The notes under the pieces are model-generated. The model saw only the letters and a program-made list of their open reading frames with translations. It did not search any database and was not told the DNA's origin. The position numbers and the translations under genes are program-made. A stretch of 64,000 nucleotides of DNA from the NCBI RefSeq assembly GCF_018977255.1, contig NW_024704742.1, positions 32,614,001 to 32,678,000 of the forward strand, in the 5' to 3' direction. Positions 1 through 64,000 of the stretch are shown here, piece by piece (positions within the stretch are counted from its first letter, which is position 1; each line of letters starts with the position of its first letter). The stretch comes from Callorhinchus milii. Lineage: Eukaryota.

Positions 1-3000
1 TTGTTGTTGTCTTGTATTATTATATCATTATTATCATTATTGCGAGTCTTATGCCAGACAGTAGATTGTCCAGCATTAAGGAGAGAATATATTTAGAATA
101 AAGAAACTCTCAACTAGCGCTATTTTCTTTCTCTAGAGTCAGATCATCCATAAATCACTTGTTATACAGAGGACATTAACTGATCATAGGTGTTGGATGA
201 AAGCTGATGGTATTTCGTGCAGGAAATGAGTTCATGGAAAGCTGTTAAACAAGTAGGAAAGAAGCAGAAAAAAAGCCCCCAAGTTCTTGTCCAAAACTGT
301 AGGTTGCAGTTGAGTGCAACCAAAATGGCAATTGAAGGAAAGAAAGGTTATTCAAACATAAACTCAATTCACTGAGCATTGAGGAAGGATATTTTATTGG
401 GACTCTAAAACAGCAATCAGTCACACGTAGTGGTATATTACCATCATGTTGCGTAAACACTTTACTATGTAAAAATGACTTTGTATTGCTTTTCATGTCA
501 TAATTTTTTGTGTAAATAAATATTTTTTGTGTTGATCTCTGATTGCTGCTTTATACATCCATCACTACCAAGAGATTGATTGCATGGGCCCAAGGTCCAC
601 AGACCTAATACTATGGAGCTGACAAGAAAGGCAACTGTCAATCAACCCTTGGGGAGACAGCTCTGGAAGGGCAGTGTGGAAAGAGAGCAGCACTGTGAAT
701 CTTGCGGCAAAAGAGGTTCCATCTCTTCCAAGATCACTTGTGAGCCTGTAACAGGTGAAGACAGAACCCTAAAACACATACTATAATGCTGGTGATCACC
801 AACATCCCAAGAATCAACCTTTATTACATTATCCAAGACTCTATCCCATATGAAAAGCGCTATATAAATGCAGTTGTTGTTGTACTTTAAGCACAGTAGG
901 TTACAAAGCGGTTCACATAAGATAATTTTGAAAGTATGAGAAGTATTTTGTTAGTATAAACTTTGTTTACTTTTTTAAATATATGTAGCAAATTTGCCAT
1001 GGGAATTTTGACTGTTTTTCTTTGGCAAGTCTGAGACAAAACAACTCAAGGGATGGCATTTATACAACCGTGATAATTATTGTCAACTAACCATTTTACT
1101 TAATATTGGAAACCAGTGATGCACAACAGAGCATCAAGTGTCCCTTCACTTCACACGGCTGCACTTGGCTCTTGAACATAATTCAAGCTGTCTTTGTGAT
1201 CGAGGAGAAACAGTACAATTCCAAAACACAGATAATGTTTCATGGGGCAGGCCAAGAATCTCTTCCATTTACTTACTTCACAGTGTGCCAAGTATTCTCC
1301 AGGGACTCATTCAAGGTGTAATAAACTGACCCGGCGCTTAAAAATTAACTGGTGCTGCCACAAAGCTCGACCGTCAAGATGTTCAGCCTTCATCTTTTAA
1401 TGAAACTTTTTTTTAAACCCCTGCAAATCGTGATGTCTGTCTTTGACTAAGTGTCCAGCTCCGTATCTGAACCAACCTCTCAGTCAGTATCACAAGAAAG
1501 GTTTGGTTGAAGAAGCCCCTTTGGTCTATTTGATCTCATCCTTCCAGAATACCCACCCCACTGCCCTCCCATCACAGTATGAACCTGTCTTATTGCTCTG
1601 GGTTTAATTCTTCAATCCCATTTATAATCTTGTACAACACTATATGGAACAAGCATTAGAGATTGGGAAACGTGACAGAAATGTCAGAAGCATGGGAAGG
1701 ATAATGGGAGAGAATGAAAATGCCGGGGTATAAAAGATAAGAATGGCGAAAATAGATGACAATGCAGGAAGAGAGAATAGACCCAGATACATATACCAGA
1801 AAATTGGAGGGGCAAAAGTGGTCACGACACAGAATAAAGGAGCAGACAGTATGACAATAAAAAGTTATGTGGCAGCTAATCTGTGATAACAACATCCTAT
1901 GTATAATAATGAATGGGCAGCCCATTGATTTGAATTTCTAGGGAAGATTTGGATGATGAGGGACTAAACCCAAGATAAACAGAAGGAAAAAAACACACTT
2001 TATTTAAAAAGCATAACCACACAAGGCACACAAGAAATTAATGGCTCAATCAGAAAAGTGATGATGATCTGGAACTAATCAACATGTGTTTGATATAGAA
2101 ATTAGATAAACACAAACGACAATCTACAATAAATTTACAATTTATGAGGCAAAGAACAGTAGGGTGTCAGTCAACTTGGAATATAGGATCGAGAGGAAGA
2201 GGGACGAGAGTAAAATTCCTCTTAATTCCACTCTGACATTTTTTTACAGTTACTAAATAACTCCAGAGGGACTCTCGAACTGCAGACTCTATATGTGAAG
2301 AACAGCACTGAATTTTCAACTACTACTTTATCTTGCTTCACACAACATGCTATACAGATCAGTCATGTGCCGCCCACAGTCTGCGGATACTCCCTATTCC
2401 GAAACTTCAATTAAAGCAAGACAAGAAGTGAACTCTTTCCCCCACAGATGGGAAACTGTCACTTGTTGTCAGAAAGACCATTTACGCATTTCCACAGGCA
2501 AAACTGATCAGAGCCAATGCGAGACTGATTCAAATGACAGCATGGAAACCGGACAACTGGCGTGTTACTTACTGTAAGGCACTGGAGGCTGGGAACGTTC
2601 ATGTTCAACAAACGTTATTGCTCATAAATAAAGTGCTAAGTGGCGAAACAGAGGGAAAAAATACATCATGCATTCTAACAATAATCTTTGCATTTACTCC
2701 TGTGTTAAAAATATGGGGAAAGAGATTTATCCCAGTTTATGCACTTAACAAAACATTTATACTATTTTATTGGTTGTCTCAAGATTTGTTACTTCACTCT
2801 AATTCACAATTGTCATACAATATAGATTTTAGCTATATGTTAAAATCTAAATGATTTAAGCACACAATTGGCCTCTTTAGTATACGTCCCTTTAATACGT
2901 TAAGAAAACTAGGCGATTTGAACTTCAACAGAATGTTTGGGTTGTGGTTCACATTTAATATTATTTTAAAAGAAAAGGAAATGTTTGTTGTGAAGCGGTT

Positions 3001-3695
3001 AGATAATTGCAGTGACATGACCTTTCCCATGGTGCTGTCCAAATGATGACATCCTCGTAAATAAAAGCGAACATAGAATGATATTTCCACTGGGAAAGGC
3101 AGAACGCTTGGAGCAGTGGACTTCATTACAAGGTCCAGCAGTCTTTTACTGCTCCTGTTCCACATCAGTTGCGGACCACCACAGAATCATAGAAAGTTTA
3201 TAACCACAGTAGGAGGGTATTCAGCTGGTGTTAGCCTCCCCACTGAAGCGAACTACTCCAATCCTACACCCCTTTTCTTTTCACAAACCTTTTAATATTT
3301 TTCCAACATTTCCTGCTCCGAGTGCCTCTCTCTGGTCTGCATTCACAGCCAGGCTGTCTGGGGGTTATTTTCGACTTAGCTGGGAGCCAGTGCTGTCCTC
3401 TCTCCTTGTTGCGCTCTCCAACAAAGGCAAATTATGGTAGTAAGAGCCATCTTATGAAAGTTAAAGGTCCCAACACAATTTAAACCATTTAATAGAACAA
3501 ATGGTTCTGTGTTTTTTTTTAAAAAACTCCTCCTGTGGAAAAGTGCCTGGCTGTAATTTGGCAACCACTTTACTCAAAGTGGGAAACATTGAGCTCAAGA
3601 GCTCACTGTGAGAGGAATCGCAATGTGGTTTCACATCTGGTCACTTTGTGGTCGGTCCAATGTGTTGCACAACTCCAAAGAGCAGCTGTCAAGCA

Positions 3696-4645
3696 ACAAT
3701 AACAACAACAACAACAACAAGATTCCATTTATAAAGCGTCTTTCACATCAGGAGGACGTCCCAAGGCGCTGCACAGTTGGGTCATGACCCGAGCAGGGGG
3801 GAAATGGTCAGGGTGAGGGGAGGGAAGGGAGGGATCGAGGAGGGGGTAGAGAGTCGAGAGGGGAGCTGAAGGCTCGGTCAAAGAGAAAGGTTTTGAGACC
3901 GGCCTTGAAGGAGGAAAGGGAGGAGGCGGCGAAGGCACTGGGGGATAGAGTTCCAGAGCCTAAGGGCTGAGAGGCTGAAGGCCCGACCACCGATGGTAGG
4001 GCGGTTGGGACGGGGGATGTGGAGCAGACCGGAGCCAGAGGAACGGAGGGTACAGGCAGGTAGGTAGGGGGAGAGTAGGTTGGAGAGGTAGGAGGGAGCA
4101 AGGCCGTGAATGGCCTTGTAGGTGAGGATGAGGATCTTGAAATCAATCCTCTGGGGGATGGGGAGCCAGTGGAGGCGAGCGAGGGTGGGAGTGATGTGGT
4201 CCCGAAGCCTGGTGCGGGACAGTACACGAGCTGCAGAGTTCTGAATGACCTGCAGCTTGTGGAGGGAGGTGGCGGGAAGGCCGACGAGGAGAGAGTTCCC
4301 ATAGTCCAGCCTTGAGGTGACAAAGGCGTGGACCAGAGTTACAGCCGCGTGAGGGGTGAGGTAATGCCGTAATCTGGCGATGTTCCGGAGGTGATGGAAG
4401 GCGGTGCCAGTTGTGAGGGAGAAAGGACAGCTCAGGGTCGAACAAAACGCCGAGGTTCCTGACTGGCTTTGAGAGGTGGAGAGTGCAGCCTTGGATGCTG
4501 ATGGTGTCAGCGCCTGAGGTGCGGAGGCGCTGACGTGAGCCAATCAGGAGGGCCTCGGTTTTTCACACGTTGAGCTGAAGAAAGTTGTCTCTCGTCCAGG
4601 ACTCGATGTCGGACAGGCAGGCTGTCAGGTCATCGGTGGTCGTAA
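3696..4645 (-). mobile_element. L2 LINE 3' fragment (C-terminal ORF2, 3' UTR, (TTG)n tail)
   Basis: ORF 3878-4543 HLRNIARLR...LVHAFVTSRLDYGNSLL...LHWLPI..RIDFKIL is typical of L2 ORF2; terminal stem-loop and microsatellite tail. Confidence 0.93.
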
Positions 4646-25126: not shown

Positions 25127-25549
25127 CTCAGCACAAGCCTTTAAGCAAGTCTTCTTGAAGCCAAGCAACTCAGCGACGTCTTTCCTGCTAGGATCTGCAT
25201 TGCAGGTCCCCTGTACAATGTGCCTGAGCGTGACAGCCAGCCCAGCTCGGCAGAAATTTCCACCCTTTTCTACCAGTGCAGGTAAGCGGCAGCTCTGCAC
25301 TACTGCAGGCAGCTCCTGGTGGGAGAGGATGTCAATGGCAAGGCTCTGTGGTACCCCTCTCTTCCCCGGGTGACTGTCCACGATATCGCCCTCGGGCACC
25401 AGGACCAGCTTCAGAGCTGTGCAGTCACAGTAGGACAGCAGAAACAGAACGACAGAGGTGTGCAGTGGCAGAACGAGGTCCTGTGAGTGGTGGGTGAGCT
25501 CCAGGTACAGGTGCTCTGAGGTGGGGCCACGCGGGCCCTTGTCCTTCAT
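25127..25549 (-). CDS. GSTCD: GSTCD first coding exon (MKDKGPRGPTSEHLYLE...LGFKKTCLKACAE)
   Basis: Acceptor ctcctccag| at 25556, ATG at 25549, donor GAG|gtgagt at 25127. LPLHTSVVLFLLSYC, CRAGLAVTLRHI and LGFKKTCLKACAE match the vertebrate GSTCD N-terminus. Confidence 0.93.
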
Positions 25550-25597
25550 TGGGGCCCTGGAGGAGAGAGCGAAAGAACCATCAGCGAACAACTGAAT

Positions 25598-25936
25598 GGT
25601 CAGGGGGTGGGGGGGTCAGGGGGTGGGGGGGGTCAGGGGGTGGGGGGGGTCAGGGGGTGGGGGGTCAGGGGGTGGGGGGGGGTCAGGGGGTGGGGGGGTC
25701 AGGGGGTGGGGGGGTCAGGGGGGGGGGGGTCAGGGGGGGGGGGGTCAGGGGTGGGGGGTCAGGGGTGGGGGGGTCAGGGGGTGGGGGGTCAGGGGGTGGG
25801 GGGGTCAGGGGGTGGGGGGTCAGGGGGGGGGGGGGGGGGGGGGTCAGGGGGTGGGGGGGGGGTCAGGGGGGGGGGTCAGGGGTGGGGGGTCAGGGGGGGT
25901 GGGGGGGGTCAGGGGGTGGGGGGGGGGGGGGGGGGT

Positions 25937-25968
<32 letters not shown>

Positions 25969-26095
25969 CAGGGGATGGGGAGTCGGGGGGTGGGGGGGTC
26001 AGGGGTGGGGGGTCAGGGGGGGGGTCAGGGGTGGGGGGTCGGGTTTGGTGGGTCAGGGGGTGGGGGGTCAGGGGGTCGGGGGGGGGGTCAGGTCA
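25598..26095 (+). repeat. G-rich minisatellite (GnTCAGnT)n filling GSTCD intron 1
   Basis: Dozens of GGGGTCAGGGG units with long G runs. Confidence 0.95.
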
Positions 26096-26190
26096 GTCCA
26101 TCCACTCGCTCTATCATCCATAACAATAATGATAACTATGGTGTACTTTACTCCACAACAATAATAACACAATGTATGCGGTTTACTTAC

Positions 26191-26290
26191 CAATAGAATG
26201 ATGTAGTCCGTGTAGTCCGGTGACTGCGCGGTGTGTGCAGTGCAGTGCAGTCCCTCCGCTCCGCGGTTTGTCTCCAGTCCGGAGCGAAGA
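26191..26290 (-). other. GSTCD: GSTCD putative non-coding exon 1 (5' boundary approximate)
   Basis: CpG-rich segment ending in a consensus donor TTG|GTAAGT on the - strand at 26191/26190; the next exon's acceptor is at 25556. Confidence 0.65.
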
Positions 26291-26319
26291 GCGCGACGGA
26301 CCGGAAGTTACGTTTTGTC

Positions 26320-26397
26320 TCTCGCCGGAGGGGGGACCGCGGAAACAGCGGGACCGGAAATCACCGAATGATGCTTCCGACCGGAGAGAAAGTAGTG
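26320..26397 (+). other. INTS12: INTS12 putative non-coding exon 1 (5' boundary approximate)
   Basis: Donor GTG|gtgagt at 26397/26398 inside the CpG-rich promoter. Confidence 0.6.
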
Positions 26398-26403
26398 GTG
26401 AGT

Positions 26404-27330
26404 GTGTCCGTGTGGGGGGGAGTGTGTCCGTGTGGGGGGGAGTGTGAGGGGGGGAGTGGGAGAGAGAGAGAGTGGGAGAGAGAGAGGGGGGGAGTGGGTG
26501 AGAGGGGGAGTGGGGGAGAGAAGGGGAGAGTGAGAAGGGGAGTGTGAGAGGGAGAGGGGGGAGAGAGAGAGGGGGAGTGGGAGAGAGAGAGAGGGAGTGG
26601 GAGAGGGAGAGGGGGGGAGTGGGAGAGAGAGAGGGGAGTGGGAGAGTGAGAAGGGGAGTGTGAGAGGGAGAGGGGGAGAGAGAGAGGGGGAGTGGGAGAG
26701 AGAGAGAGGGAGTGGGAGAAGGAGAGGGGGAGTGGTGAGAGAGAGAGAGGAGTGGGAGAGGGTGGGAGAGAGAGAGGGGGAGTGGGAGAGAGAGAGAGGG
26801 GGAGTGGGAGAGGGGGGGAGTGGGGGAGAGAGAGTGAGAGGGGGAGTGTGTGGGAAAGGGGGAGAGTGGGGGAGAGTGTGAGAGGGGGTGTGTGGGAAAG
26901 GGAGAGAGTGGGAGAGGGTGTGGGGGAGAGAGTGAGAGGGGGAGTGTGTGGGAAAGGGAGAGAGTGGGAGAGGGTGTGGGGGAGAGAGTGAGAGGGGGAG
27001 TGTGTGGGAAAGGGAGAGAGTGGGAGGGGGTGGGGGAGAGAGTGAGAGGGGGAGTGTGTGGGAAAGGGAGAGAGTGAGAGAGGGTGTGGGGGAGAGAGTG
27101 AGTGGGGGAGTGTGTGGAAGGAGAGAGTGGGAGAGGGTGTGGGGGAGAGAGTGAGAGGGGGAGTGTGTGGGAAAGGGGGAGAGAGTGAGAGGGGGAGTGT
27201 GTGGGAAAGGGAGAGAGTGAGAGGGGGAGTGTGTGGGAGAGAGAGAGAGTGGGAGAGGGTGTGGGGGAGAGAGGGGAATAGTGTGAGAGGAGGGGGAGAG
27301 GGGGTGTGTGTATGGAGGAGAGGGAGTGTG
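26404..27330 (+). repeat. Polypurine (GA/GT-rich) low-complexity array in INTS12 intron 1
   Basis: Almost C-free strand; recurring ~50-bp unit gagtgagagggggagtgtgtgggaaagggagagagtgggagagggtgtgggggaga. Confidence 0.93.
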
Positions 27331-27637
27331 TGTTGGGGCTGCAACCCACTGCCTCCTGACTCAGAGGCGAGAATGCTACCAACTGAGTCAGACTGACAGC
27401 ATCTATCGAGAAAAGCCCTTGTGGGAACAGAATAGGCAGAAGGTGGAGAGCGGAGGGAGAGAAAGAGGTGGGGAGCATTTGAGGTGGTGGGATCCCATAG
27501 TGCGTTGCAAAACCCCACTATGGGATCCCACTTCACCCCAAATACTCTCTGGGGTTCATTCATTCACTGATAATATTGAGGTGATCTTCAACTAATTTAT
27601 TTTCCATTCAACCTTCTGGCTGGTGCTTCGCAGGACA

Positions 27638-35090: not shown

Positions 35091-35432
35091 ATTTGTGATG
35101 AAATGTGAACTAGTTGTTGGTCCTAAAGGTTTCAGTGGGTCTGATTGGTGTATGCAAAACACGACAAAGTCATTTCACTGAGCGTGAAATGTTTTTGAGA
35201 TATGTCAGTTTGATCAGGTGTACACCCAAAGGAATAAATTATTGTTAAATTGCAGAGGCATTTGTTTGGTAATCGCTTTCATTTAAATCATATGGCAAGT
35301 AAAAATTAACACCATTACTATTAATACACCATACACCATTAATACAAATTGAAGAATGATGTATAATACTGAACGAATAGTAATATTTCCCTGTGCATTC
35401 CTCAACTGTAATCAATGGAAAAGCAATTGTTT

Positions 35433-36020
35433 ACAACAACAACACATTTGTAGAGCACCTTTCTCGTCGGGAGGACGTCCCAAGGCGCTGGACAGACAGA
35501 GTTACGAACCTGAGCTGAGGGTCGGGGTGGGGGAGGGCGGGGGGGGAAGCAGGGAGATCGAAAGCATGGTCGAAGAGGAGGATCTTGAAGTGGGTCTTGA
35601 AGGTGGCAAGGGAGGGGGTGAGACGGAGGGACTGCGGGATGGAATTCCAGAGGGTGGGTACCAAATGGCGGAAGGCCCACGCCCCGATAGTGGGGCAAGC
35701 AAGGTGAGGGACGTGAAGCAGGCGGAGCCCGCTGAGCGGAGGGAGCGAACAGGGTGATAGGGGGTTAGGAGGTCGGAGAGGTAGGGGGGAGCAAGACCGT
35801 GAAGGGCTTTGGAGGTGAGGACCAGGATCTTGAACTGTATCCTCTGTGTGATAGGGAGTCAGTGGAGTCGGGTGAGGATGGGGGTAATAGGATCGCGGAG
35901 CCTAATGTGGGAGAGGACCGGCTGCAGAGTTCTGGGTGGTCTGCAGTCTGTGGAGGGAGGAGTTGGGGAGGCCGACAAGCAGTGAGTTTGCATAGTCGAG
36001 CCTCGATGTGATGAAGGCGT
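35433..36020 (-). mobile_element. L2 LINE 3' fragment
   Basis: Reverse complement closely matches 52935-53510. Confidence 0.9.
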
Positions 36021-36301
36021 TTACTAGGAAATGAGTGCAAAACGCAATATGGGATTCAATTACAGTTCAAGGCTAATAATAATAATCCTTGCATTTGATA
36101 TAGTGCCTTATCGGGTCGTTGAGACGTTTCAAAGCGCTTCACAGGATATACCGTAAAGTGAACTGACTGCATATTTTGTGGACGAGAAAGGTTTCCCCTA
36201 TAAAGTATCAGCTGAGGGTCTAGAGAGAATATTTAAGTCTTTTTCACCCTGCTGAATGTGGTTTCAAATACTTTTTTATTAATTTAAAATATTTTTTGCA
36301 G

Positions 36302-51154: not shown

Positions 51155-51764
51155 CTGCAAAAACAAAGGGTATCGTTACACCGCTAAAGTGAAACATTCC
51201 CACTGGTAAAATACACTTAAAAACGCCCCATCAACATGGTAACAGTTTCAGGCAGAAAGAGTTCATTGGTCTATCTAACCTACTCCTCTAATTTTCCAAA
51301 ATACTCCTTCAGAAAATGTATTTCTTAGAATTTTATTGCTGAATTCTTTTAACTTCCAGGAATTTGTCTAGTTCCTTTTTAAAAACCTTTAGTTCCTTTT
51401 CCACTTCCAATGTTTGGTACTTAACCCCTTTACTAAAATATCCTACATTCTGCACTTCCTATTCTCTTTTGTCGTCTTTGTTTTGAAGCTATTAACTTTA
51501 TTGTCAGAGGTGCCGTCCTTCAGATGAAACATTAATGCAAGGTTCCCCCATCTGCCTGTTTAGGTGAACATGAAAGAACCCAGTGCACTGTTCAAAAAAA
51601 GAGATTGGAGTTTTTCCTGGTGAGGTCAGCAATTCCTCAAATAAAATTTATTTCACTTGTGGCTGTTTCTGTGACTTTGCTGTGTGCAAATTGGCTGCTG
51701 GGTTTGTCTACAAACAGAGAGACTATCATTTAAAGAAACTTGGTGAAGCATTTTGAGACATTTG

Positions 51765-53510
51765 AATCCAAAGTCGAGGGAATACCCTCAGCTGTCTCTG
51801 CCACTGCATCTGCTACCCCTTCTCCATCTCCTCCTCCTACCCCGGCCCCTACACATCGTTCCCTCCACAACTTTGAACCTGTCTCCCCCTCCTCTCTCAT
51901 CACCACCATAAACCGTAGGAAACCCACCATTTGCTCTCTCGACCCCATCCCCACCCCTCACCTCCCAGCTCCACCTCCTTGCCCCTCTACTCACTGACAT
52001 CGTAAACCTCTCCCTGTCCTTTGATACTATTCCCACCCCTTTAAAAACCACTGTCATCACTCCTATCCTTAAAAAATCCTCCCTGGATCCTTCTTTACTC
52101 CCTAACTATGGCCCCACCTCCAACCTCCCTTTCCTCTCCAAAGTCCTGGAACGAGTTATTGCTTCTCAGCTTCGCTCTATTTTCTCCTGCCATTCCCTTC
52201 TCAAACCCCTCCAATTGGGTTTCAGTGTCAGTGACAAATGACATTCTGTCCACCTGCGACCAGGGCTCCCACTGCCTCCTCATCCTACTTGACCTCTCTG
52301 CTGCTTTCGACACCGTCGACCACTCTATCCTCATCCACTGCCTCTCCTCTCACGTCAACCGCCACGGTGCTGTCCTGGATTGGTTCAGTTCGTCGTACCC
52401 CTCACACCCCCTGCACTTCATCTCCTCAAACGGCTTCTCCTCTAGCCCCGGACCGACTCATGTGGCTCTGTCCTTGTCCCCTCCTCTTGAATATCTATAT
52501 GCTCCCTCTTGGTGACATCATCCGCAGACATGGGGTCAACTTTCATATGTATGCGGATGACACCCAACTCTACCTCTCTGCCTCCACCCTCGACTCCAGG
52601 ACCACTGCTGTCCTGACAGAATGTCTGTCAGACATCAAATCCTGGATGAGAGCGAACTTTCTTCAGTTGAACGCCAACAAGATCGAGGCCCTCCTGATTG
52701 GCTCCCATCAGCGCCTCCTCACCTCAGGCACTGACAGCATCACCATCCACGGTTGCACACTCCACCTTACTAAGCCAGTCCGGAAACTTGGCATCTTGTT
52801 TGACTCTCAACTATCCTTTCTATCCCACATCTGTGCCATGAACCGCTCTGCCTTCCCCCACCTCCGCAACGTCGCCCGGCTCTGACACTGTCTCACACCA
52901 CAGGCCAACGAAACCCTTACACACGCCTTCATTACATCGAGGCTTGACTATGCAAACTCACTGCTTGTCGGCCTCCCCAACTCCTCCCTCCACAGGCTGC
53001 AGATCATTCAGAACTCTGCAGCCGGGTCCTCTCCCGCACCGGGCTCCGTGACCCTATCACCCCCATCCTCACCCGACTCCACTGGCTTCCTATCACACAG
53101 AGGATACAGTTCAAGATCCTGGTCCTCACCTTCAAAGCCCTCCACGGTCTTGCTATCCCTTACCTCTCTGACCTCCTAATCCCCTACCACCCTGTTCGCT
53201 CCCTCCGCTCAGCGGGCTCTGACCAGCTTCACGTCCCCCGCTTTGCTTGCCCCACTATCGGATGGCGCGCCTTCTGCCACTCTGCACCCACCCTCAGGAA
53301 CCCCATCCCGCAGTCCCTCCATCTCGCCCCCTCCCTCGCCAACTTCAAGACCCACCTCAAGACCCTGTTTTTCAACCATCCTTTCCCACCTGCCCTCCAC
53401 CCTCCCCCACCCCGACCCCCAGCTCGGGTCCGTAACTCTGTTTGTCCAGCGCCTTGGGACGTCCTCCCAACATGAAAGGCGCAATACAAATGTAATTTTG
53501 TTGTTGTTGT
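51765..53510 (+). mobile_element. L2 LINE, degenerate RT region plus 3' end (antisense to PPM1K)
   Basis: LLILLDLSAAFDTVDH and FHMYADDTQLY RT motifs with frameshifts and deletions; 3' tail aaatgtaattttgttgttgttg. Confidence 0.94.
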
Positions 53511-54976
53511 ACAGCCGCACTATGAAATGCATGGGTTTACTTTTTATGATTATTTAACTGATATGTTTAGATTGTTAATACATTATCAATGCGCACTTTA
53601 GAAATTAAAGCTTTACATCTGCCTTCATTAGACATCTTACATATAAAAAGGCCGAATCAAAGTAGCAAACCTCTCCCAGATTTTTTAGTTATTACAGACT
53701 GCTGCAGAACTTCATTGGCTAGTTGTACAAACAGTTGGGCAGCATTGACTCTGCATTCTCTGGAAGCAAGGCAATGAGCAGTTCCGAACAGAGAAATGTT
53801 GCAGGTATTGTACAAATAGCAACAAAAATAACTCCTCTCCCAAAGCAACAATTTGAACAATGGTCGATGCTAGATATTATTGCTTCCTCCTTCTGTTGGA
53901 ACAGGGTACCCTGAATTTTTAGGAAGTTATGTTAATTCAAAAATGTTACCAATTAACTTATGTAAATCAGTTTAAAATGGAGAAGACAGAGGGAAAGGAG
54001 AACAGGATGTGACTATTCGTACAAAACAAACACTGCAGTTTGGGCACCTCAATATCAGGTGGTCATCAGGTGGTTTGGGAGAATGCCGGCCAAATTCACA
54101 CAGATAATGCCAAGGCTCGATATTACAGGCTTGAGTTGGATATTGATTAGGTAGAGAATGTTGAGAGGGTCTAACTGAAGTGTTCAAAATTAAGAAAGGG
54201 TTATTACAGTAAACTCCTAATAACTTATCACTCAAATGGAAAAGGCTTCAATGACAGGTTATCGAGAGTAGTTAGTTGGCATATGTAAAAATACGTAAGT
54301 GAATGCAGGCGGGATATTTAGATGACTTAAGTGGTAGTGACAAATAAAGCCAGGTTTGAGTTATCAGAAGTTTACTTTATTTCTTTTGGTGGGTAAATTA
54401 ACGCCCAAAAATTATCAGAAGCATAAAAGTATAGGTTGGACAATTTTTTATTTATAAAGGATGTAGCTGTGTTACCACAAATGGCTCTTGAAGCCAAATC
54501 AATTACAGTATTTAAAAAAAATTAGATAAACTCTTGGAAGTATAAAGACAATAACCCTTGTATTTGGTACAGCGCACTTCACATTGGGAGGACATCTCAA
54601 AGAACTTGACAGGACTGTCATTTTATAATGTAAGCAAGAAGGAACGAATCTATCAAATTTTAGAACGTATGGCAAAGGGCTGCTGGGTATGAAGTTTATT
54701 TCCCGCCTACTGCATATTGAGTTCAGTGAGAACGTGTTCAGGGTGGGGAAGAGATGGTGAGAAAATGGAATTCATATAAATTGTAAAAACATGTATCATT
54801 TGATGACTATGATGATATTGGCTAATATACAAGCTCATGTGCATACCTTTAATGGGCGTTTTGAAGTGATGTTAGCAACGCTTGTGCTTAGTACACAGGA
54901 AATTATGTCAATGGGTGGGTGGCGGGGTGCCCTGAAGCAAGCAATCCGACAATTAAATAACTAAATCTTGTTTCAC

Positions 54977-55111
54977 CTGTTCAGTAATAAGCTGAGCAGC
55001 CTCTATTGGATCATGACACTGACTGATGTGGTCGCAAATCTCTTGACTGTTCATAATAAAGTTAATCCCATCCGTCGTCAAAACCAGGAAAGCATCATCT
55101 CCATGCTGTAC
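54977..55111 (-). CDS. PPM1K: PPM1K exon (VQHGDDAFLVLTTDGINFIMNSQEICD...ITEQ)
   Basis: 135 nt, phase 0/0. FLVLTTDG metal-binding motif; ttgtag| acceptor and CAG|gtgaaa donor. Confidence 0.94.
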
Positions 55112-55539
55112 CTACAAAAGGTAGAAATCAAGGGTCACCGGGCATGCAAAGTTTATATAAAAAAAGTATTACAGAAAAGAAAACATACACAAAATCAAAC
55201 AATTTTTATTTTTAAAAATAAAGCTTTGGGCCACTTTCAATAATAATAATGATAATCCTTAGATTTGATATAGCACTTTAACACACTGTCGAGACGTCTC
55301 AAAGCACTTCACAGTACACTGTAAAGTCGGTCTGGCTGTTTTAAGTTACTAAATTGACCTTAAAACAGTGAGTAATCCTGCATTTCTAGATTGCTTGCTT
55401 CAGAAATAAGACTAAAGAGGGGCAGGTTATCCTAGAACAACCTCATTTGAATATGTCAACAAGATGGAAGCCAGACTCTTTGGCTCCCTTCAATGTCTTC
55501 TGTCCTGCGGGTCTGAACTCACTCAACCTCCCCAGGCTC

Positions 55540-56498
55540 TGTCTCAGACCCTTCCTGTGCGCAGCTTGGGCATCAGGTTCAATCCCCAGCTTTCATCTCT
55601 ACCACACATCCGTTCTCTGACCAGAATTGCTTTTTTCCACCCCTGTCACATTGCCCACCTCCGCCCGTACTTCCCAAAATCCTGTGGAGCATGCTCCCTC
55701 GGGAGATGATTGAAGCAGGAAGTGTTGATCCTTTCAAACACAGATTAGATAGTTTTCTTTTAGGAAATAACATTATGGGATATAGTACATAGGTAGTTTG
55801 GGACATATGTGCATGCGACCACCAGGAAGGTGGAAGGCGAACTAGATGGACAGTGGTCTTTATTCGTCTAGCATTTCTTATGTTCTTATGTACAATTGAC
55901 GCAGCTGAAACCCTCGTCCACACCTTCGTCACTTCCCAGCTGGACTATTTGAATGCCCTCCTCGCTGGTCACCCTAGCTCCACCATACACAAAATCCAAA
56001 GAAGTCAGAACTCCACTGCATGGATACCCACCCGCACAAAGCTCCGTACCCCCATCATACCAGTCCTTGCCAGGCTTCACTGGCTCCCAATTACAGAACA
56101 GATCAATTCTAAGATTCTCTCAATCGTTTTCAAATCACTTCATGCCCTCGCACCTCCCTATCTATCCGAGCTGCTTACCCCCCACTCCACCACCTGCTGC
56201 CTCCGCTCGGCTGGCTCCAGCCTCCTGATTGCCCCTTGTGCCCTCCGTTCCACCATTGGTAGATGTGCCTTCAGCCAATACCCCTCGACACTCTGGAAAT
56301 CTCTCTCCCTCAATCACTTTGTCTTATCCCCTCCCTCCCCACCTTCAAATCCCATCTAAACACCTTTCTTTTTGAATGTGCTTATGGTCACCTCTCCCCT
56401 ACCTCTCCCCCCAGCTCATTGTCAAGACTCCGCCACTGTGAAATGCTCCAGGATTCTACCCCACGTGAAAGGCGCTATATAAATGCAAGTTGCTATTG
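55540..56498 (+). mobile_element. L2 LINE 3' fragment interrupted by a CR1 3' end
   Basis: AAETLVHTFVTSQLDYLNALL...LHWLPI ORF2 remnant; L2 tail at about 56440-56498. Confidence 0.88.
55678..55891 (+). mobile_element. CR1-type LINE 3' end nested in L2
   Basis: LWSMLPREMIEAGSVDPFKHRLD-like ORF2 end; tail ttcttatgttcttatgt. Confidence 0.8.
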
Positions 56499-56827
56499 AT
56501 GTGTACATCGCCCTGAATACATGTTAATACACTGACTATAGATTTATACATGCTAACAAGGGCGCTATGTAAATGCATGTTGTTGTTGAATATGCTTGGA
56601 TGAAATCACTAATTACAGCATTTAAAAACAAATTTAATTGAAATATTTGTATGAGGTTCAAAAATTCAATATTATGTTTTAAACATCCAGTTAAAAAAGA
56701 GGCAATAGCTCTTTGTTGTTGCTGTTTTCAGATGATTTGCAATTTGTCTTCAATTATCATTTTTGCAGATAAGGTATAGAGTACTCAGTTATGCAAGGTG
56801 ATACTGGTGTACAGTATGCAGGCCTAC

Positions 56828-56972
56828 CTTAATCCGTTTAGTCTCTGGCTCAGCAATGACTCCCACAGACTTTAAGGCCAGATCGCCTATACTGCGGGTC
56901 ATAGCCAATCTCCCATTTACATGTGGTTGACCTAGACTGTTCCAGGCAACAAAACCGCCACATTTCTTAATT
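56828..56972 (-). CDS. PPM1K: PPM1K exon ([30 protein letters not shown]...AEPETKRIK)
   Basis: 145 nt, phase 2/0. [15 protein letters not shown]2C motif. Confidence 0.96.
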
Positions 56973-57174
56973 CTATAAAACAAAATAAAGGTTGGTCATT
57001 ACATGGAAATTGTAATCAAAGATAATTATAGTTGTTTCTAAGAAATACAAAATGTATATAAATACAAATTAATCTGTGGTTGTATATCAGATTTCAACTT
57101 ATAGAAAATTACTAGCTTTAGATATTTATCATAACTCCCATAGGACTATTTGTGCTACTTTTTCATAATATTAC

Positions 57175-57340
57175 CTCTCCCTTTCATCTTTTCTTTCTGG
57201 AGTGTGGTCTTCAGTCAATCGCTCAGGCTTTCCTTTTCGACAAAGAATAGCCCGGCTGTCACCTACACTTGCCACAACAAGTTCAATGCCATCACGTAAC
57301 AGAGCCACAGTGGCAGTCGTTCCCGATGTCAGGATGGAAA
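57175..57340 (-). CDS. PPM1K: PPM1K (mitochondrial PP2Cm, BCKDH phosphatase) internal exon ([32 protein letters not shown]...[12 protein letters not shown])
   Basis: 166 nt, phase 1/2. PP2C motifs GTTA, GDSRA and DH.P; canonical splice sites. Confidence 0.96.
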
Positions 57341-58872
57341 CTATAATCATTAGAACAGAACTGAAATCACACTCTGAGAAAATGCAGCATATTAACAAGC
57401 TTTAAAGGCATTACTAGTATTTTAGGTAAATTACAAGCGAATCTATTGAAAATAAATAATGAGCAATATTATATATCTGATACAGCATGCAGGTATTAAA
57501 CAACTTTGTAAGATAGTGGGGGTATACTTCATTAACAGGGTTTAATGCTTAGCTAGCGTTACAAAAGGCAACAAGCCCAAGTGCTTAGAAAAAAATGAGC
57601 TGGTTGAGAAAAACAATATTTGTGGCAAGTGTCTCTAGTTAGAATCAGGCCCTGTTGCAATAATTATATAGAAGTAACTACTAATAGGTTATTCACAAAG
57701 TTAAAAATTTTAAGAAGGAACAAAATAATTGTTCAACTAAAAACTACATATACTATAAAGCAGGTATTTTTAAATTAGGCATTTCAGGAAACAATGGGAA
57801 TCATTCCTTTCAGATAGGTTTAAAAATATTTTGTGAACTATATCACAGCATTTTAAATAGAGAATGAAATTACACCCCCAACACAAAGCCTACATTAAAG
57901 GAGATAGTCCCAAGTTGTTAACCATTCTGAGTCTCTCACAAGGAAGCTGCTCCACTTAAGTGTGAGAGCATTTGAACTATAAGGAGTCGTGCACATCCAC
58001 ATTCTTCCCATTTTTAAAATTTAAATCAAGAGATACCTACTGTAAACTCAATACTTACTGAGCATTGCTAGATGCTTGGCTGATACTATTTTTTTGGTGG
58101 GGGAGCGGCTTGAATGGTGTCCACCCAATGCAACAGCCAGAAAGTATACCTTTCCACCAAATAACATAGAATTATTTTCTGCAGTGAAATTCAGCAGAGC
58201 AGCTTCCCGAAGGGAGCGCAGACCTGATATGGCACATCTCTACAAGCTAGAAAAAAGCCCTGAACTAGGATAAGCTCCTACAAGGTGGCAATTTTAAAAA
58301 AAAATGATTTTGAACAATGTTTATATTGAGCTTGAGTGGTGAAAAAAGCGAGATATTGAACCCCATTCTATATATGCTGCACCTTTCCCACACTCATGAA
58401 GAACACATTACAGACAGAATGCAGAAAGAATATACAGTATGTTTATGGTTTGCTGTCTAACAGCTGTAAACTTTCTGCCATACCAGCAAAAAAGTGTTGA
58501 ATATTTAGAATGAATTTCCTCTAAAAAAAATCAGTCTTCTGAAGATTTGGTGTAACAAATATAACTGTTGTTTAGAAATAAAAATACCTGCTTAACAGTA
58601 TTCACTGTTTATTTTTTTAAAATGCTAAAAGTGGTCATTTTACTTGTTTTTAAAATGCGTAATCTTTGGAGATTATGACCAAATGCTACAATATTTTCTA
58701 GCCACTAGGACTGACAAATGATTTCAATGTCAAACTAGTCACACAGATAAAAACATAAATACTAAGATACTTTACGCTTGGTTTTAAAAACATATGTGGC
58801 ATTTAACAACATTTTGCCTAATATGTTAACATCACTACATTACTAATGTCTTCAACAGGACTGAACACTCAC

Positions 58873-59078
58873 TGAAGCCGATTTTATTGAATGTCACCTC
58901 TACTAATGGGACAAAGAGGTTGTAGGGGGCCCTCCAGTAGTCCAGGCTAGGAACCGCTGGACTCCTTCAACTGGGAGAAAAGGGGAGCAGTTCTCCTTCC
59001 ACTGAAGCCCAACAAAGTGTCCAGGGCCTCCAGTTCTAGAGCTGCTGGTGCTGCGCAACAGACCAGGTACAGACTCTG
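58873..59078 (-). other. PPM1K: Candidate PPM1K alternative (poison or terminal) exon
   Basis: GC-richer island with TAG/CAG tandem acceptor. Phase-1 entry reads 58 aa to TAG TAG (58900-58905), followed by AATAAA (58883-58888) and a gtgagt donor (58867-58872). Confidence 0.65.
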
Positions 59079-62000
59079 CTACAGATAACATGTACACAGA
59101 GGCAAATAGGAAATTTACGCAGGGACGTCCATACAGTACCTGCAACACTGGAAATATTATAACTGGAGCTGCATGTAAAATGGCTGCTAGATTTATATGC
59201 ACAAAATTCACCCACCCAAAATATTGTATTCACTTATACAACTAAACTGTATGTCTTACAAAATTAACATTTGTCAAAATAATCTATATCTTTTCATGGG
59301 TCAAATTTTGATTCCTCCCCATCATAACAAAAAGAGACCATATAGAAGGTAGTCCGCAGCTCTTAAATATTAACCAGTGTTACAGGGCAACATTAATTAT
59401 GGTAGAACCAAAAGCAATATTAGAAAATGCCAAACATCTTCATACTATTTGATGATTTTCCAATCTGTACTAGCTGAATATTTGAATTATTGTTTTATTC
59501 GGAGAATATTTACCACCATTATTTTGTAGTCTAATATACAAAATGAACAAAAAAAACAGTATAAACCAAAAGATACTATACCAAAGCTTGATTGTAGTGC
59601 AGATTTATCCACTAGCTTTTACAGATACAGGCTATTCCAAAACCTTGGGAATATTAAACCAAATATCTTATCAATAAATATCAATTCCATTAGCTATGAG
59701 GTCACTCCCCAAGGAAGGAAAGCTTAGGAAATGTTTTACAGGCTAAATGAGAAACCTAAATCAGTGTGTTTCAGCATTATGTATATTTACTGAAATGTCT
59801 CCAAACAAACATTAAAGGGACTCTGGACTCTAGTTAATTTGGAATGATAAAGTACAACTATTTGCTCCGATATTAATCATAACTGATTTTTTTTGAAAGA
59901 CCACAATAAAATATTTGATTAAATTGACAGCTTTAAAATTAATTTTAGAGAAAAAGTGTAGATTGTACATTGTTACACATTTCATTCATTTTCGGTCATT
60001 AAATCAAATTGTGAATATTACATGGCAAGTGAATCATAGTTCAAGGGTTGAGTAACTGCTGTGAAAGTATATAAATCAATATAAACTAGCAAAAATATTT
60101 AATGTGTACTAGTGATCACTCCCCATCCCCAAAGTGTCCAACAATCATATGCAAAAAAAACTAACAACATTTTTTCATTTCCCAAATAGCTAGTTTAGCT
60201 CTCAAAAAAAAATTAGAAAAGCTTCAGTAACTGTCGAAATTTGCTTCTGTATTTTATTGTCATTGGACACTTAATCAGAGTTACTCTCAGTCAATAGTTC
60301 TAAGCTTCATTACCACTGAAATTAAATGTTGGCAAAATTCTTCAGAGTATTTATACGTAAATGATAAGCAAGATCCTTTGGACAACACCAAAGGGTATAA
60401 AAGTGTGGGTGATAAGATAATGCAAACTTCAGGAAAGTTGAGAGGAGATTTTATGTGCACGGGAGCAAATCAATGCTTTCTCTAATTGTCAACAAGTGGA
60501 ACACGAATCAGCTAAGGCATTTTCACAAAGAAGTTCTGGGCAACACTCAATTTGTTATCTGGTGTGGAAATAGGTTTCCTCATTTAGATGAGGACATGCT
60601 AATGGCCAAGACAATCACATTGACCTTCATGCTAAATTTGGACTGGATTCACATTAGTGTGACAAAGTGATGGAAGAGAACATGGACTGATGTCTTGTAA
60701 ATGTCAGGGACAAAACAGTTTACACAAAGATTTTGGAGTGGGAACAATGCAGATTCAACTAGGTCTAAAGGAGGACGGATGGGGGGAGTCTTGCATAGGA
60801 CAACAGCAATAGTAAATTTTTATTTGTAGACAGAAATAAAAAAATTAAAAGCTTTCTGAACAGACCAACAAGGTAACACTTGCCTGACATATGGTGCAAG
60901 TTAAAAACTCAGTTGTCGTTTAGTAAAATATTCAACTTTTTAAAAAAAGTTTAAAAAAATCAAGGGAATCAATATGAAAAGAAATTGCAAGTATGTTAAA
61001 TGTTTTATTTTCACTATCAATCTGGCGTATTTCACAAAAGAAATAAGGTGAAAGTGTTACTTTAAGCTGTAAAGTCTGAAGTCACCCAGTCTGGAATAGC
61101 CTGTTACAAGTTTGCAATGATAAATCTACCGTACAAAGCATTAGTTCACACAAAAATATTACATACTGGGTTAAAAACATGGGGCAAAATTTGCAGTATT
61201 CCTGAAGTTCCAGCCCAAGTAATAACCAAATAAAAAACTACTTCACTCTCTGAGGCCGAAAACCCAAACGCCTCAAGACTGAAAATTCAATATGGTGTCA
61301 CATCAATTTGAAAATCAGAGCTGGGAAGGGGAAAGAAACCACCACCCAAGTGGCTTTTCGGTGTTTTTAGCAGGTTTAGTGTGAAACCAGAAATGCTCTA
61401 ACAAACTAAACACCATTAATTGTGGGAATAATTAAGACAGTGTTATTTTAAAGAATACCACAAATTTTACCCCAATATGTAATAAGAATATTGATGATGG
61501 ACAAGATCGTTTAAGACCCCTCACAAGCCTTTATGCGCCATTCAATTATTTTAAAGCATTTTAGGCTCTACAATCATCATCATTCAGCATGAAGCTTTTT
61601 TGTATCAGTACAATAAGTGTTCCCCTCACACCAGTTTATGACTGTTAAAGACGAATCGTGCTGCGAGCTTGAACGTTCTGTTTATAGCAGATCTGTGCCT
61701 TTAAACTACGTAACTGATCAAAAAGTTACAAATCACTACATGCATATACCAGCTAACATTTGTTTTACATGTACATGTATGAATTATATTTCAGTTATTT
61801 TAGATAAAACTTTAAATTACATAATGAATGTCGTAATTTCTGGTCATAATAACCCCCTGGAATAGTATTCAAATGGATATTGTTTTAAACGATTCACTGG
61901 ATAATCATAACATACTGGACTAGGTGGTGAATGTGGGAGTGGTGCTACAATTCGATGCTAGTGCAAATTTACTATGAGGAAAACAACTCTAAAAGAATGC

Positions 62001-64000
62001 AAACATTTTAAAAAGGTAACATCTGACTTTGAATAGTTAAAATTATCTGTTAAAGTGGTCTATTCTACTGCAGGCCTTCAATTGCCTTTTACAGGCATTT
62101 TTAAATTATCTCCTATTAGTTGAGATAACCTGAGACCAGTACAATTTAATCATTAATTACAATGACTGTAGCACTCATGTGATTGACAAAATTGCTAAAA
62201 TACAAGTATTGGGTACCTTGGTCTAAAATTGTAAAGGACTCCGCTAATAATTAAAGAACATAGAATTTAAAACATTAAAAAAAATCAAAAATGTGATAAG
62301 ACAAAGCTGGAAAGATATTAAGATAAGTGTATGATATAGGATTACTGTACATCAGCATTTATTAAACACTGCCAATGGATGGAATCTCCACTAAATTCTT
62401 GTTTTCAAATATATCTTCTACCACTCACATACTAATAGACCTTTGGTACTAAGTATCTATTATGCATTTGTAAGCTTTTACAGTGAGAGTCAGTAACCTA
62501 TTAAGTAAGGTTAATGTCTAATGACCACATAGGGATTGTTCATCAAAAATCATTGGAAGTCATTCAGGAGTAGAAATCCTGTTTTTTCACCTCCCATAGA
62601 AGTCACATTCAGTACAGCGTCAGCATTCCTACATCAGTTGAGATTAGTTAGTTAGTGCAAACAAGGATCAAACAAACATTGAGACATTATATTTTCTTCC
62701 TCTTGCCCTAGTTGGGCCTCATTACACAACATACAAGAGGGTGGAAAATCTGAGCTGCTCCCTGGCCTCTTTCAGTATCACTGGGAGCGCTAAAAAAAAT
62801 CAGGAAAACTACAGAGGGCAGGAAAAGAGAGATCAAAGGCACATAATTACTCCATGATGTTGCTGGATTCTCATACTCGTGGCCTCATTCACCCTTATGC
62901 AAAGGGTGGTTTCAGAAATCTAAGTGTCATATAATAATAATAATCCTTGCATTTGATATGGTGCCTTATCAGTCTTTGAGACGTCTCAAACATATGAACT
63001 GCTCTCCTGTGACTGCGCAATTTAAACAAAAGTGCCTTCATTTTTTTCGGAAAACAGAAAAGTATTCTTTAGCTAATTTTTATCTCTTAAAACCTTTGCT
63101 AAAATCACAGACCATTATATCAAGACCCAAATTAATAGGGATTGATTTTCAAAAGGAATGGTTAAGAGTACAGTACTAAAGCAGACTTCAGAAAAAAGAA
63201 AGCAATAAAAGAAGCTTAAAGGCAGAAAAAATAGAGGCAAAAGAAAAAAATATATAAATATGTATAGAATAAACTCAAATCAAAATTTCATGAATGCATC
63301 TACATAGTTTAAAAATGTATGGAGAGATTTTTTCTAAATGATTGCTTTGAAGTGTTTGGTTACAAAAAAACTAGAAGATACTGTATAAGAATCATGAGGG
63401 AAACATTGCACAAAGTCTTTCAAAGCAGGAGGAGAAATAAAATAACAAGTATGATTTTTTTTGCGTCAAGTGGCAATTTTGAAATTGTGACAAATTATGT
63501 GCATTAACGGAGTTTGCTGTTCTTCCACACTGTGGGAGAGAGGCATCAAAATTCTGAAATGACAAGTCATTGGAACTGTCAGTTTGGTGACCTTTTCCAT
63601 TTAAAAAAATGGAAAAATAAATACCATTTTTCTTCCCTCCGAATAAACATAATGCACAATCTTGGAGAAGTTTAATTCCTCATCAGTGTACTCACTGCAC
63701 AGTCCTACCGGCCTCTTCATTTTTGCAAATGTTAAGTATAATACAAAATAACTCGATCATTAGAGGAAAGGAAATAAGAGGTTTTTTTTAAAAATAGGAC
63801 TGTACTTAAGCTACAATCATACAATTTAGGACACATACACAACGTAAAGAAACAGCAGTGGTTACAGAATGGATGATATCTCTTCTGAAAAGTACAGGCT
63901 ATAAATACTTTAGCGATGTCTTTGATTTGAGTGGATTGATGAATGGGCAAATTTTATAAAAAATATTTAAGAAGTCAAAGCGATTAAAAACAATCTGTAT

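Follow-up and report, generated by a model that had tools for sequence, protein, structure and literature searches.

A probable ancient unproductive or terminal alternative exon in intron 3 of Callorhinchus milii PPM1K

We analyzed a 64,000-nt stretch of the Callorhinchus milii genome (RefSeq assembly GCF_018977255.1, contig NW_024704742.1, positions 32,614,001 to 32,678,000 of the forward strand), hereafter the window, in whose coordinates features are given unless stated otherwise. Judged by its protein matches, the minus-strand host gene is PPM1K (PP2Cm): a search with the translation of exon 2 (P0004) placed 106 of 137 candidate proteins at E values of 1e-10 or better, the matches that carry a name are called PPM1K or protein phosphatase 1K, with up to 76% identity for those from mammal- or bird-named entries. 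Outside the window, at L003 1694..1594, exon 3 ends in phase 1 with ...AAATG/gtaggt (slashes mark exon boundaries; protein ..LSAN+G). Constitutive exon 4 (57175..57340, minus strand, 166 nt) begins in phase 1, starting tatag/TTTCCATC at 57340 and reading TT TCC ATC.., and matches the PP2C profile PF00481 over positions 98 to 149 of 255 (E = 1.3e-16). The original prediction, made from the sequence alone, had named this gene, placed the feature of interest in the intron that precedes the GTTATVALL exon, and called for phase-1 entry, in each case correctly.

Intron 3 (8,253 nt, minus strand) hosts a GC-richer island with the anatomy of an alternative exon, the long form of which spans 58873..59078 (206 nt from 59078, 203 nt from 59075). 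Its GC content is 53.4% against 34.0% for the intron; this level is reached by just 0.6% of 805 sliding 206-nt windows in intron 3, and every such window with at least 50% GC overlaps the exon. The exon opens at a tandem 3′ splice site (59076..59080, minus strand) with AGs at 59080-59079 and 59077-59076, reading ...ctgtAG/CAG/AGTCTG and giving a start at 59078 or 59075. Entry in phase 1 with the final G of exon 3 yields AESVPG...TTSLSH, a tail of 58 aa (57 from 59075) that is closed by a double stop, TAG TAG (58900..58905, minus strand). From the first of these stops (58905-58903) it is 30 nt to the exon end and 196 nt to the exon 4/5 junction, the latter distance exceeding the 50 to 55 nt before a downstream junction that the stop rule for poison exons asks for. 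An AATAAA hexamer (58883..58888, minus strand) lies within the exon and comes 11 nt before the 5′ splice site GTGAGT (58867..58872, minus strand; ttca/GTGAGT, exon end 58873). In its other frames the island reads CTWSVA, ALELEALDT, ASVEGE, and SQLKESSGS*PGLLEG. The features from the tandem acceptor to the donor are all at the positions that had been predicted, as are these alternative readings and the GC contrast with an AT-rich intron.

Further potential acceptors lie on either side of the tandem site. An internal AG (58970..58972, minus strand) follows ccccttttctcccag and would start a short, 98-nt form of the exon at 58970, with phase-1 entry translating as VEGVQRFLAWTTGGPPTTSLSH-stop. Upstream of the exon, a flank that includes the polypyrimidine tract and branch region is conserved (59079..59190, minus strand) and contains a 29-nt block (59168-59140, minus strand) bounded by tgcag/ and /GTACTG; entry from this upstream AG leaves the frame open for 88 residues before the stop. 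Phase-1 entry at all four AG sites (59078, 59075, 59168, and 58970) ends at the identical TAG.

We compared this exon with alternative PPM1K tails in protein databases by aligning protein tails and reading frames to the DNA with frame shifts allowed, using shuffled tails as the control. The human counterpart is P0145, a 233-aa protein with the source name "Isoform 2 of Protein phosphatase Mn(2+)-dependent 1K" (further source names, "isoform CRA_a" and "UG0882E07"; listed accessions, EAX06014.1 and AAN76514.1). It diverges directly after ..RLSAD, where the canonical human form (P0014) continues ATLLTSGTTA, and ends in a 52-aa tail, ENCAWSAALDLEPVDTICGASVEREICLILSQVKESSGSYPGLREGSHISLSH. The alignment of this tail to 59057..58906 scores 115, with 3 frame shifts and identity at 33 residues; 100 shuffles in a local control average 29.6 and peak at 42. 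Over the 9-kb region L005 the same score stands against a maximum of 54 (12 shuffles), and the island is the only place matched. The human splice isoform that the original prediction had cited, with a tail ending SLSH-stop, is real and diverges at the same junction. Intron, junction, and phase are shared and similarity is above chance, and on this sequence evidence the island is orthologous to the exon of human isoform 2.

Within this shared framework the two exons differ in detail. As in the island, the human tail ends SLSH-stop at the aligned place, but the two are separated by three indels of ~1, 14, and 2 nt, as read from the alignments and tail lengths (52 residues in human, 57 or 58 in C. 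milii). Most of the human tail frame corresponds to frame 2 of C. milii, which is closed there by a TAG where human has Tyr. The human tail starts one residue before the aligned start, suggesting that it corresponds to the second AG. Human isoform 2 covers the PP2C profile only to position 100 of 255, and use of the island would cut the domain at about the same position, in keeping with the truncation of the phosphatase that had been predicted.

Birds supply a second set of counterparts. Two turkey PPM1K-like isoforms, X2 (XP_031408912.1, tail GEGVQRFLAWTTGRFPHPLCHIS) and X3 (XP_010707996.1, tail DTVPGQQL, also found in a chicken UniRef entry), share the junction of the island; X3 uses the equivalent of its second AG (59076) and X2 that of its internal AG (58971). 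For the X2 tail the alignment begins at 58968 and scores 84 (shuffle maximum 42), with identity at 18 of 23 residues; these include a 12-residue block, EGVQRFLAWTTG, that matches completely and in the same frame in turkey and C. milii. Over ~300 nt, two reading frames of bird type (P0003 and P0157) align with scores of 249 and 221 (shuffle maxima 54 and 56), extending upstream to 59182 and 59188 (e.g., C. milii FPICLCVHVICSR versus FPICLCVRVICGR), whereas residues 1 to 145 of P0003 have no match within 55000-64000. The conserved block is thus wider than the predicted 58867..59085, reaching ~59190. The X3 tail begins immediately after the CAG of the second acceptor, and DTVPGQQL-stop, in turkey and chicken, is the exact +2 frame of QTLYLVSSSR in P0003, where it has only one compatible position (0 of 2,000 shuffled tails were compatible).

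The bird version also departs from that of C. milii. It lacks 14 nt near the exon start, and because of this loss the phase-1 frame stops after 8 residues. In P0003 the tandem pair has TGG (..CYLWQT..) in place of its first AG, while the second CAG is retained. Both P0003 and P0157 end in ..DDLQ-stop where C. milii reads ..GDIQ-stop (caaTAA), and this alignment indicates that at least part of the AATAAA has been kept. Conservation of nucleotides through frame shifts, as originally proposed, therefore holds, and the proposed retention of the stop position holds in human but not in turkey X3 with its 8-residue tail. We consider the island probably orthologous to the exon behind turkey X2 and X3, a judgment made jointly with the overall reading given below.

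Among 11 alternative tails aligned to the 9-kb region, human isoform 2 alone was clearly above its shuffles; no clear excess was seen for the other ten (bat, human X4 and X5, turkey X1 and P0116, peafowl, macaque-type, porpoise, P0150, and teleost), with turkey X1 marginal at 34 against a maximum of 32 in 12 shuffles. In local alignment, 6 of 10 tails were too short to exceed shuffles, namely three mammalian ALSL.. tails (ALSLLSPVLQVCNV types), human X6, turkey X3 taken alone, and emu DVTVKSVAQAS; since the mammalian ALSLLSPVLQ.. tails do not rise above shuffles, their link to the upstream flank is only a lead. A phmmer search with the C. milii tail (P0001) returned 5 hits, of which P0003 and P0157 are relevant; P0156 and P0158 are internally repetitive and were judged unrelated, and P0155 showed 8 matched stretches. 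The frame-2 translation (P0002) scored against none of 55 longer candidate proteins at E up to 10, and the human isoform was located through cluster members only, not via the frame-2 search. Neither protein collection searched contained a C. milii protein with the island tail. The predicted RNA fold of the island is no better than that of shuffled sequence (z = -0.26), and Rfam gave no match on it.

Some deeply conserved exons derive from mobile elements, SINE-derived ultraconserved exons being the relevant type. A DNA search of the C. milii genome (991 Mb, E up to 5) placed the island in at least 2 places, once at its own locus and once, nearly identical, on contig C43 (such counts being lower bounds), and none of the listed direct repeat families (20 of the 28 in the window) covers it. 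With so few copies recovered in this search, we rejected an exonized ancient transposable element, for which many would be expected.

RNA contigs bear on use of the exon in C. milii itself. In a contig from RNA run X4, 58873 is followed directly by 57340 (L005 341/1874); the 1,532 nt left out between them have GT..AG ends on the minus strand, and we conclude that the island donor is used. This contig is 611 nt long at a depth of 19.5, with 1 other letter in 581 and 30 letters on the exon 4 side; the donor joint occurs in this 1 contig, in one of two C. milii runs. Upstream of the acceptor the contig continues for 375 nt with no joint, and in run X3 a 4,323-nt contig crosses the donor unspliced. 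The canonical joint of exon 3 (L005 8595) to 57340 has a depth of 36.6 in run X3 and 171.5 in run X4, so both runs contain spliced RNA, and an intron depth of ~6 to 25 in both indicates that pre-mRNA or DNA is abundant there. No joint of exon 3 to 59078, 59075, 59168, or 58970 was present in the contigs of these two runs; as rare forms are lost from contigs, the missing acceptor joint is weak evidence. The junctions anticipated for C. milii were thus found at the donor and, in these contigs, not at the acceptor, and acceptor use is implied for human and turkey only, through their database proteins. Runs X5 to X14, from four other organisms and four studies, contained 0.28 of the exon's sampled words, the X5 contigs contained nothing on the exon, and from X8 there was a single 35-nt piece that differs by 4 letters (L005 1936-1970); we draw no inference from this share of words.

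The best explanation, to which we assign a probability of roughly three in four, is that the island is an ancient unproductive or terminal alternative exon module in PPM1K intron 3, the one behind human isoform 2 and turkey X2 and X3. Were it spliced after exon 3, any phase-1 entry would meet a stop within the exon, and the message would encode the first ~181 residues (~100 of 255 PP2C positions) followed by a nonconserved tail. Should splicing from the donor connect the exon to exon 4, the message would be expected to become a target of nonsense-mediated decay (NMD), as its stop lies 196 nt before the next junction; if cleavage at the AATAAA wins over the donor, a short stable message would end at the island. 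DNA, splice sites, and stop have been kept while the peptide frame drifted, which favors a function at the RNA level, most likely the lowering of productive PPM1K mRNA.

A more ambitious form of this idea would have the module act as a PPM1K splicing switch already present in the jawed-vertebrate ancestor, a proposal that we regard as tentative and, taken whole, unlikely. It would comprise ~300 nt, with several acceptors of the same phase, a near-invariant purine-rich core (the GAAGGAGTCCAGCGG.. block), the AATAAA, and a strong donor. Binding of U1 would choose between the decayed cassette and the short polyadenylated form. Through a conserved regulator, the dosage of the branched-chain keto-acid dehydrogenase (BCKDH) phosphatase, and with it branched-chain amino acid (BCAA) catabolism, would be matched to nutrient or tissue state.

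The unproductive or terminal exon module has to be weighed against readings in which something other than the RNA outcome is selected. The selected product could be the truncated protein, consisting of the mitochondrial presequence, the first third of the PP2C fold, and the tail, so that the island would be a coding alternative last exon and its product might, for example, compete for BCKDH binding. In the sources the human form counts as a protein isoform and those of turkey as predicted proteins, the AATAAA comes after the stop, and the C. milii frame runs on for 58 residues, extended to 88 if entry is at the upstream AG. Against this, the tail peptide is unconserved, with human, C. milii, and bird-type frames all differing, and it shrinks to only 8 residues in turkey X3; it matches no Pfam family, and use of a donor beyond the stop gives an NMD-type message. 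We consider a selected protein improbable.

The pattern of conservation could also reflect some other intronic element, such as an enhancer, an internal promoter or first exon, or a control of exon 3/4 splicing, with splicing of the island a by-product. Such an element would account for the conservation over ~110 nt upstream of the acceptor, and the sole C. milii contig spliced at the island includes 375 nt of the intron upstream and lacks a joint to exon 3. The database proteins of three lineages nevertheless join exon 3 directly to the block at conserved AGs, splice signals are kept on both sides, and the donor joint is in the PPM1K sense with GT..AG ends, so that this too is a poor prospect. 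Neutral intron that happens to hold an open frame and splice-like signals has in its favor that AG, GT, and AATAAA are frequent in AT-rich introns and that the acceptor joint is unseen in C. milii contigs, but human and bird alignment scores lie far above shuffles, the human tail has no second match in 9 kb, the bird-type reading frame's flanking intron fails to align, and the donor is used exactly where predicted; coincidence is accordingly very improbable.

The exon itself is already in databases for human and turkey, while a paper on its deep conservation was not found in the literature searched. We found no literature pairing PPM1K with a poison exon; among the matches listed, those for PPM1K with nonsense-mediated or NMD apparently include none on a PPM1K splice form, and those for PPM1K with cassette include none on splicing by title. 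A paper on psi-PPM1K contains no "isoform" or "splice" text, and one supplement file of PMC13187750 has 0 occurrences of PPM1K. According to a review (PMC9608770), PPM1K is the one phosphatase known to activate the BCKDH complex, and its loss leads to mild maple syrup urine disease. If our reading is correct, the island would point to conserved posttranscriptional dosage control of the BCAA pathway from cartilaginous fish to birds and humans, and exon-blocking antisense oligonucleotides could raise PPM1K. A metabolic enzyme would also join a list of deeply conserved unproductive exons that consists mostly of RNA-binding proteins.

Conserved poison cassette exons coupled to NMD are best known from SR-protein and hnRNP genes. 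Like them, the island has a premature stop more than 50 nt before the downstream junction and nucleotide-level conservation that runs into the flanking intron independently of the peptide frame. Its host differs in being a metabolic phosphatase and not an RNA-binding protein, and for that reason self-regulation by its own product is not expected. AKAP95 controls the skipping of an alternative cassette exon in human PPM1K and binds the introns on either side of it (10.1101/536839); like the island it is alternative, and the text available for that study does not state which exon it is. Another parallel is the escape from NMD via intronic polyadenylation behind poison exons described in the accessible part of Vlasenok et al. 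2026 (PMC13187750). The island resembles those exons, as presented there, in having a stop followed by a nearby poly(A) signal, an arrangement that would set an NMD target against a short stable message, and differs in that its AATAAA lies inside the exon, whereas the signal in those cases lies in the downstream intron.

PPM1K lies on the minus strand, with exons 4 to 7 inside the window as stop-to-stop frames; exon 4 begins at 57340 (tatag|TTTCCATC, phase 1) and matches the PP2C profile PF00481 (E = 1.3e-16, positions 98 to 149 of 255). Coding exons 2 and 3 fall outside the window and were read from the adjoining 20 kb past its end (L003), where exon 2 (Met..KYIV) spans about 3937..3492 and the 101-nt exon 3 (..EENLEKVLTKAFCEIDKEFARHVHLSAN) spans 1694..1594, ending AAATG|gtaggt in phase 1. 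The translation of exon 2 is at most 76% identical to mammal- and bird-named matches and mostly about 47 to 67% identical to teleost-named and similar unnamed sequences; its top match (69% identity) is a sturgeon-labelled record that the source flags as a contaminant. Intron 3 is 8,253 nt long with 34.0% GC, and the island lies within it, 1.5 kb upstream of exon 4.

All of the sequence features that had been proposed for a stop-carrying exon here were found on the minus strand: tandem AG acceptors (59080-59079 and 59077-59076), a phase-1 frame of 58 residues (AESVPG..TTSLSH), a double stop TAG TAG (58905-58900), AATAAA (58888-58883), and a GTGAGT donor (58872-58867). The candidate entries at 59168, 59078, 59075, and 58970 share one phase, and all four read to the same TAG TAG. 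The exon has 53.4% GC, and every 206-nt window of intron 3 that reaches 50% overlaps it. Searched against the organism's own genome (991 Mb), the island was found at two sites only, its own locus and contig C43 (G000:C43:397812-401082, L001), and with the E-value limit relaxed to 5 no further copies appeared. The C43 sequence matches the 341-nt island at every position. Since the two loci, compared over 3,271 nt, show 100 ungapped differences, we read the C43 copy as a haplotig or recent duplicate. None of the listed repeat families of the window covers the island, and an Rfam search gave no match on it; by these searches, the island is neither a repeat nor a known RNA. Its predicted RNA fold is no better than that of shuffled sequences (z = -0.26).

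Elsewhere in the window, long G-rich tandem arrays (periods 8 to 16 nt, GC up to 67%, GC skew up to 0.72) occupy 25500-27500, LINE-type reverse transcriptase-like ORFs lie in the PPM1K 3′ region (51700-53600, plus strand) with inverted partial copies at 35400-36060 and 4050-4650 (arms 75 to 94% complementary), and copies of a tRNA-type SINE that ends in an ATTATT tail are dispersed across the window. Upstream of PPM1K, beyond the window end, kilobase GT/GGGGT-type and CA/CACT-type microsatellite arrays (L004 640-2250 and 4050-5570) give 400- to 500-residue open frames in several frames. A weak SNORA69-like match in intron 3 (63574-63690, minus strand; 26.9 bits, below the gathering score of 47; E = 0.18) is probably due to chance.

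The original prediction pointed to a human splice isoform diverging at this junction. Searching the frame-2 translation against longer proteins matched none of 55 candidates. Searching the exon 2 translation, against short proteins only, recovered 106 PPM1K-type proteins among 137 candidates, many of which, like their cluster members, part directly after ..LSAD into assorted tails. One cluster member, P0145 (233 aa), is named by its sources "Isoform 2 of Protein phosphatase Mn(2+)-dependent 1K" from Homo sapiens and has the tail ENCAWSAALDLEPVDTICGASVEREICLILSQVKESSGSYPGLREGSHISLSH; the isoform therefore exists. With a custom protein-to-DNA aligner that tolerates frame shifts, this tail aligned to 59057..58906, matching at 33 residues across three frame shifts (score 115; 100 shuffles, mean 29.6, maximum 42). 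The island was also its best place across the whole 9-kb locus from exon 4 to exon 3 (L005; 115 versus a shuffle maximum of 54), and among 11 alternative tails from various species it alone clearly exceeded shuffles there, a turkey tail (predicted isoform X1) being marginal (34 versus 32). Judged by these alignments, the human tail is homologous to the island.

Bird sequences match the island as well. The island's own 57-residue tail, searched against longer proteins, matched one of 32 candidates, the unnamed Logan-derived P0003. The tail of turkey isoform X2, GEGVQRFLAWTTGRFPHPLCHIS, shares 18 of its 23 residues with the island in an alignment that starts at 58968 (score 84 versus at most 42 for shuffles); it begins right behind an internal AG (58972-58971) that follows ccccttttctcccag. 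P0003 and a second unnamed Logan-derived frame, P0157, have the same C-terminal residues as turkey X2 and are therefore bird-type; they align in mixed frames to 59182..58887 and 59188..58887, respectively, with scores of 249 and 221 (shuffles reached at most 54 and 56). Residues 1 to 145 of P0003 matched nothing in 55000-64000, so the island is kept and its surroundings are not, as far as translated comparison shows. Turkey X3 and a chicken entry both end ..SAD-DTVPGQQL-stop, a tail too short to score alone (20 versus a shuffle maximum of 24). It is, however, the exact +2 frame of QTLYLVSSSR in P0003, its sole compatible position there, and none of 2,000 shuffled tails was compatible with P0003; birds thus join exon 3 to the equivalent of the second AG here, and because they lack 14 nt present near the exon start here, they stop after eight residues.

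P0003 lacks that 14-nt segment (59051-59064, minus strand), and the alignment indicates that the human tail lacks it too. An emu tail, DVTVKSVAQAS, has SVAQ in common with frame 3 exactly at this segment, a match too short for significance (score 17, shuffle mean 16.3). A 29-nt block (59140-59168, minus strand) between tgcag| and |GTACTG, some 90 nt upstream from the main acceptor, reads APVIIFPVLQ in phase 1. Tails of the form ALSLLSPVLQ (followed by VCNV-stop or QLF-stop) in colobus monkey, ground squirrel, pangolin, and human X6 resemble it, as does P0157 (..LILSSPVLQV..); aligned locally, these short tails did not exceed shuffles, and the block may be a micro-exon, or an extension of the exon, that has been conserved. 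From the same ..LSAD junction, mammals and birds have at least eight more tails, all different from one another (e.g., DESDEQIQKYTTG.., VCSTLHRTWQQLF, AEEEYKPEVIQTVPLPHRENLQSS, and ERITRAAEYERENNSQEEN..), which marks intron 3 as a hot spot for alternative exons. No tail of this group maps to intron 3 here.

Alignments and tail lengths suggest that the human reading frame starts the exon in what is frame 3 here, follows frame 2 for most of its length, and finishes in frame 1 with SLSH-stop. Frame 2 here is closed by a TAG where human has Tyr. That DNA, splice signals, and a stop are kept and the peptide is not is what one expects if selection on the exon acts through its effect on the message. 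A functional truncated protein is a possible product, against which stand the drifting reading frame and a turkey tail of just 8 residues.

Four sequencing runs were compared with the 9-kb locus, none listed on record as RNA. Both runs from this organism carry the canonical exon 3-exon 4 joint (depth 36.6 in X3 and 171.5 in X4) and therefore contain spliced RNA; the intron is also covered in both at depths of about 6 to 25. In X4, one 611-nt contig of depth 19.5 covers 59453 to 58873, with one other letter in 581, before continuing at 57340. The 1,532 nt that it skips have GT..AG ends in minus-strand orientation, which are the predicted donor and the exon 4 acceptor; the contig has 30 letters on the exon 4 side, as many as the canonical joints do. 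One X3 contig reads through the donor unspliced. The predicted use of the exon is thus established at its donor, which is used in this organism, and not at its acceptor, as no listed contig of X3 or X4 joins exon 3 to the island. The X4 joint, together with human and bird alignments above shuffles, excludes a chance origin. Another conserved element, or an internal first exon, would fit the shape of this lone spliced contig and the conservation upstream of the acceptor and is at odds with the exon 3 junctions on record for human and turkey.

We classify the island as an alternative exon of a metabolic phosphatase gene that is deeply conserved and either unproductive or terminal. Public protein records already contain it for human and turkey. 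A preprint (10.1101/536839) reports an AKAP95-controlled alternative PPM1K exon in human cells, and its text does not specify which. Among the matches listed for PPM1K with poison exons, nonsense-mediated decay (NMD), and cassettes, none described this exon or its conservation, and genome-wide poison-exon supplementary tables may list it. If the genome is that of a chimaera-like cartilaginous fish, the exon would be older than the split of cartilaginous and bony vertebrates.

Inclusion of the exon would leave about 181 residues, ending at PP2C profile position 100 of 255. Stops farther than 50 to 55 nt before an exon junction make a transcript an NMD target, and a message in which the island is spliced to exon 4 would carry its stop 196 nt ahead of the exon 4/5 junction and is thus a predicted NMD target. 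The AATAAA 11 nt ahead of the consensus donor suggests a competing predicted fate as a terminal exon. Because U1 snRNP on a nearby donor suppresses cleavage, the cassette and terminal outcomes could be traded off through U1 snRNP at this donor. A 2026 paper (PMC13187750), in one text supplement file of which PPM1K is absent, presents poison exons with poly(A) sites behind them as a means of escaping NMD.
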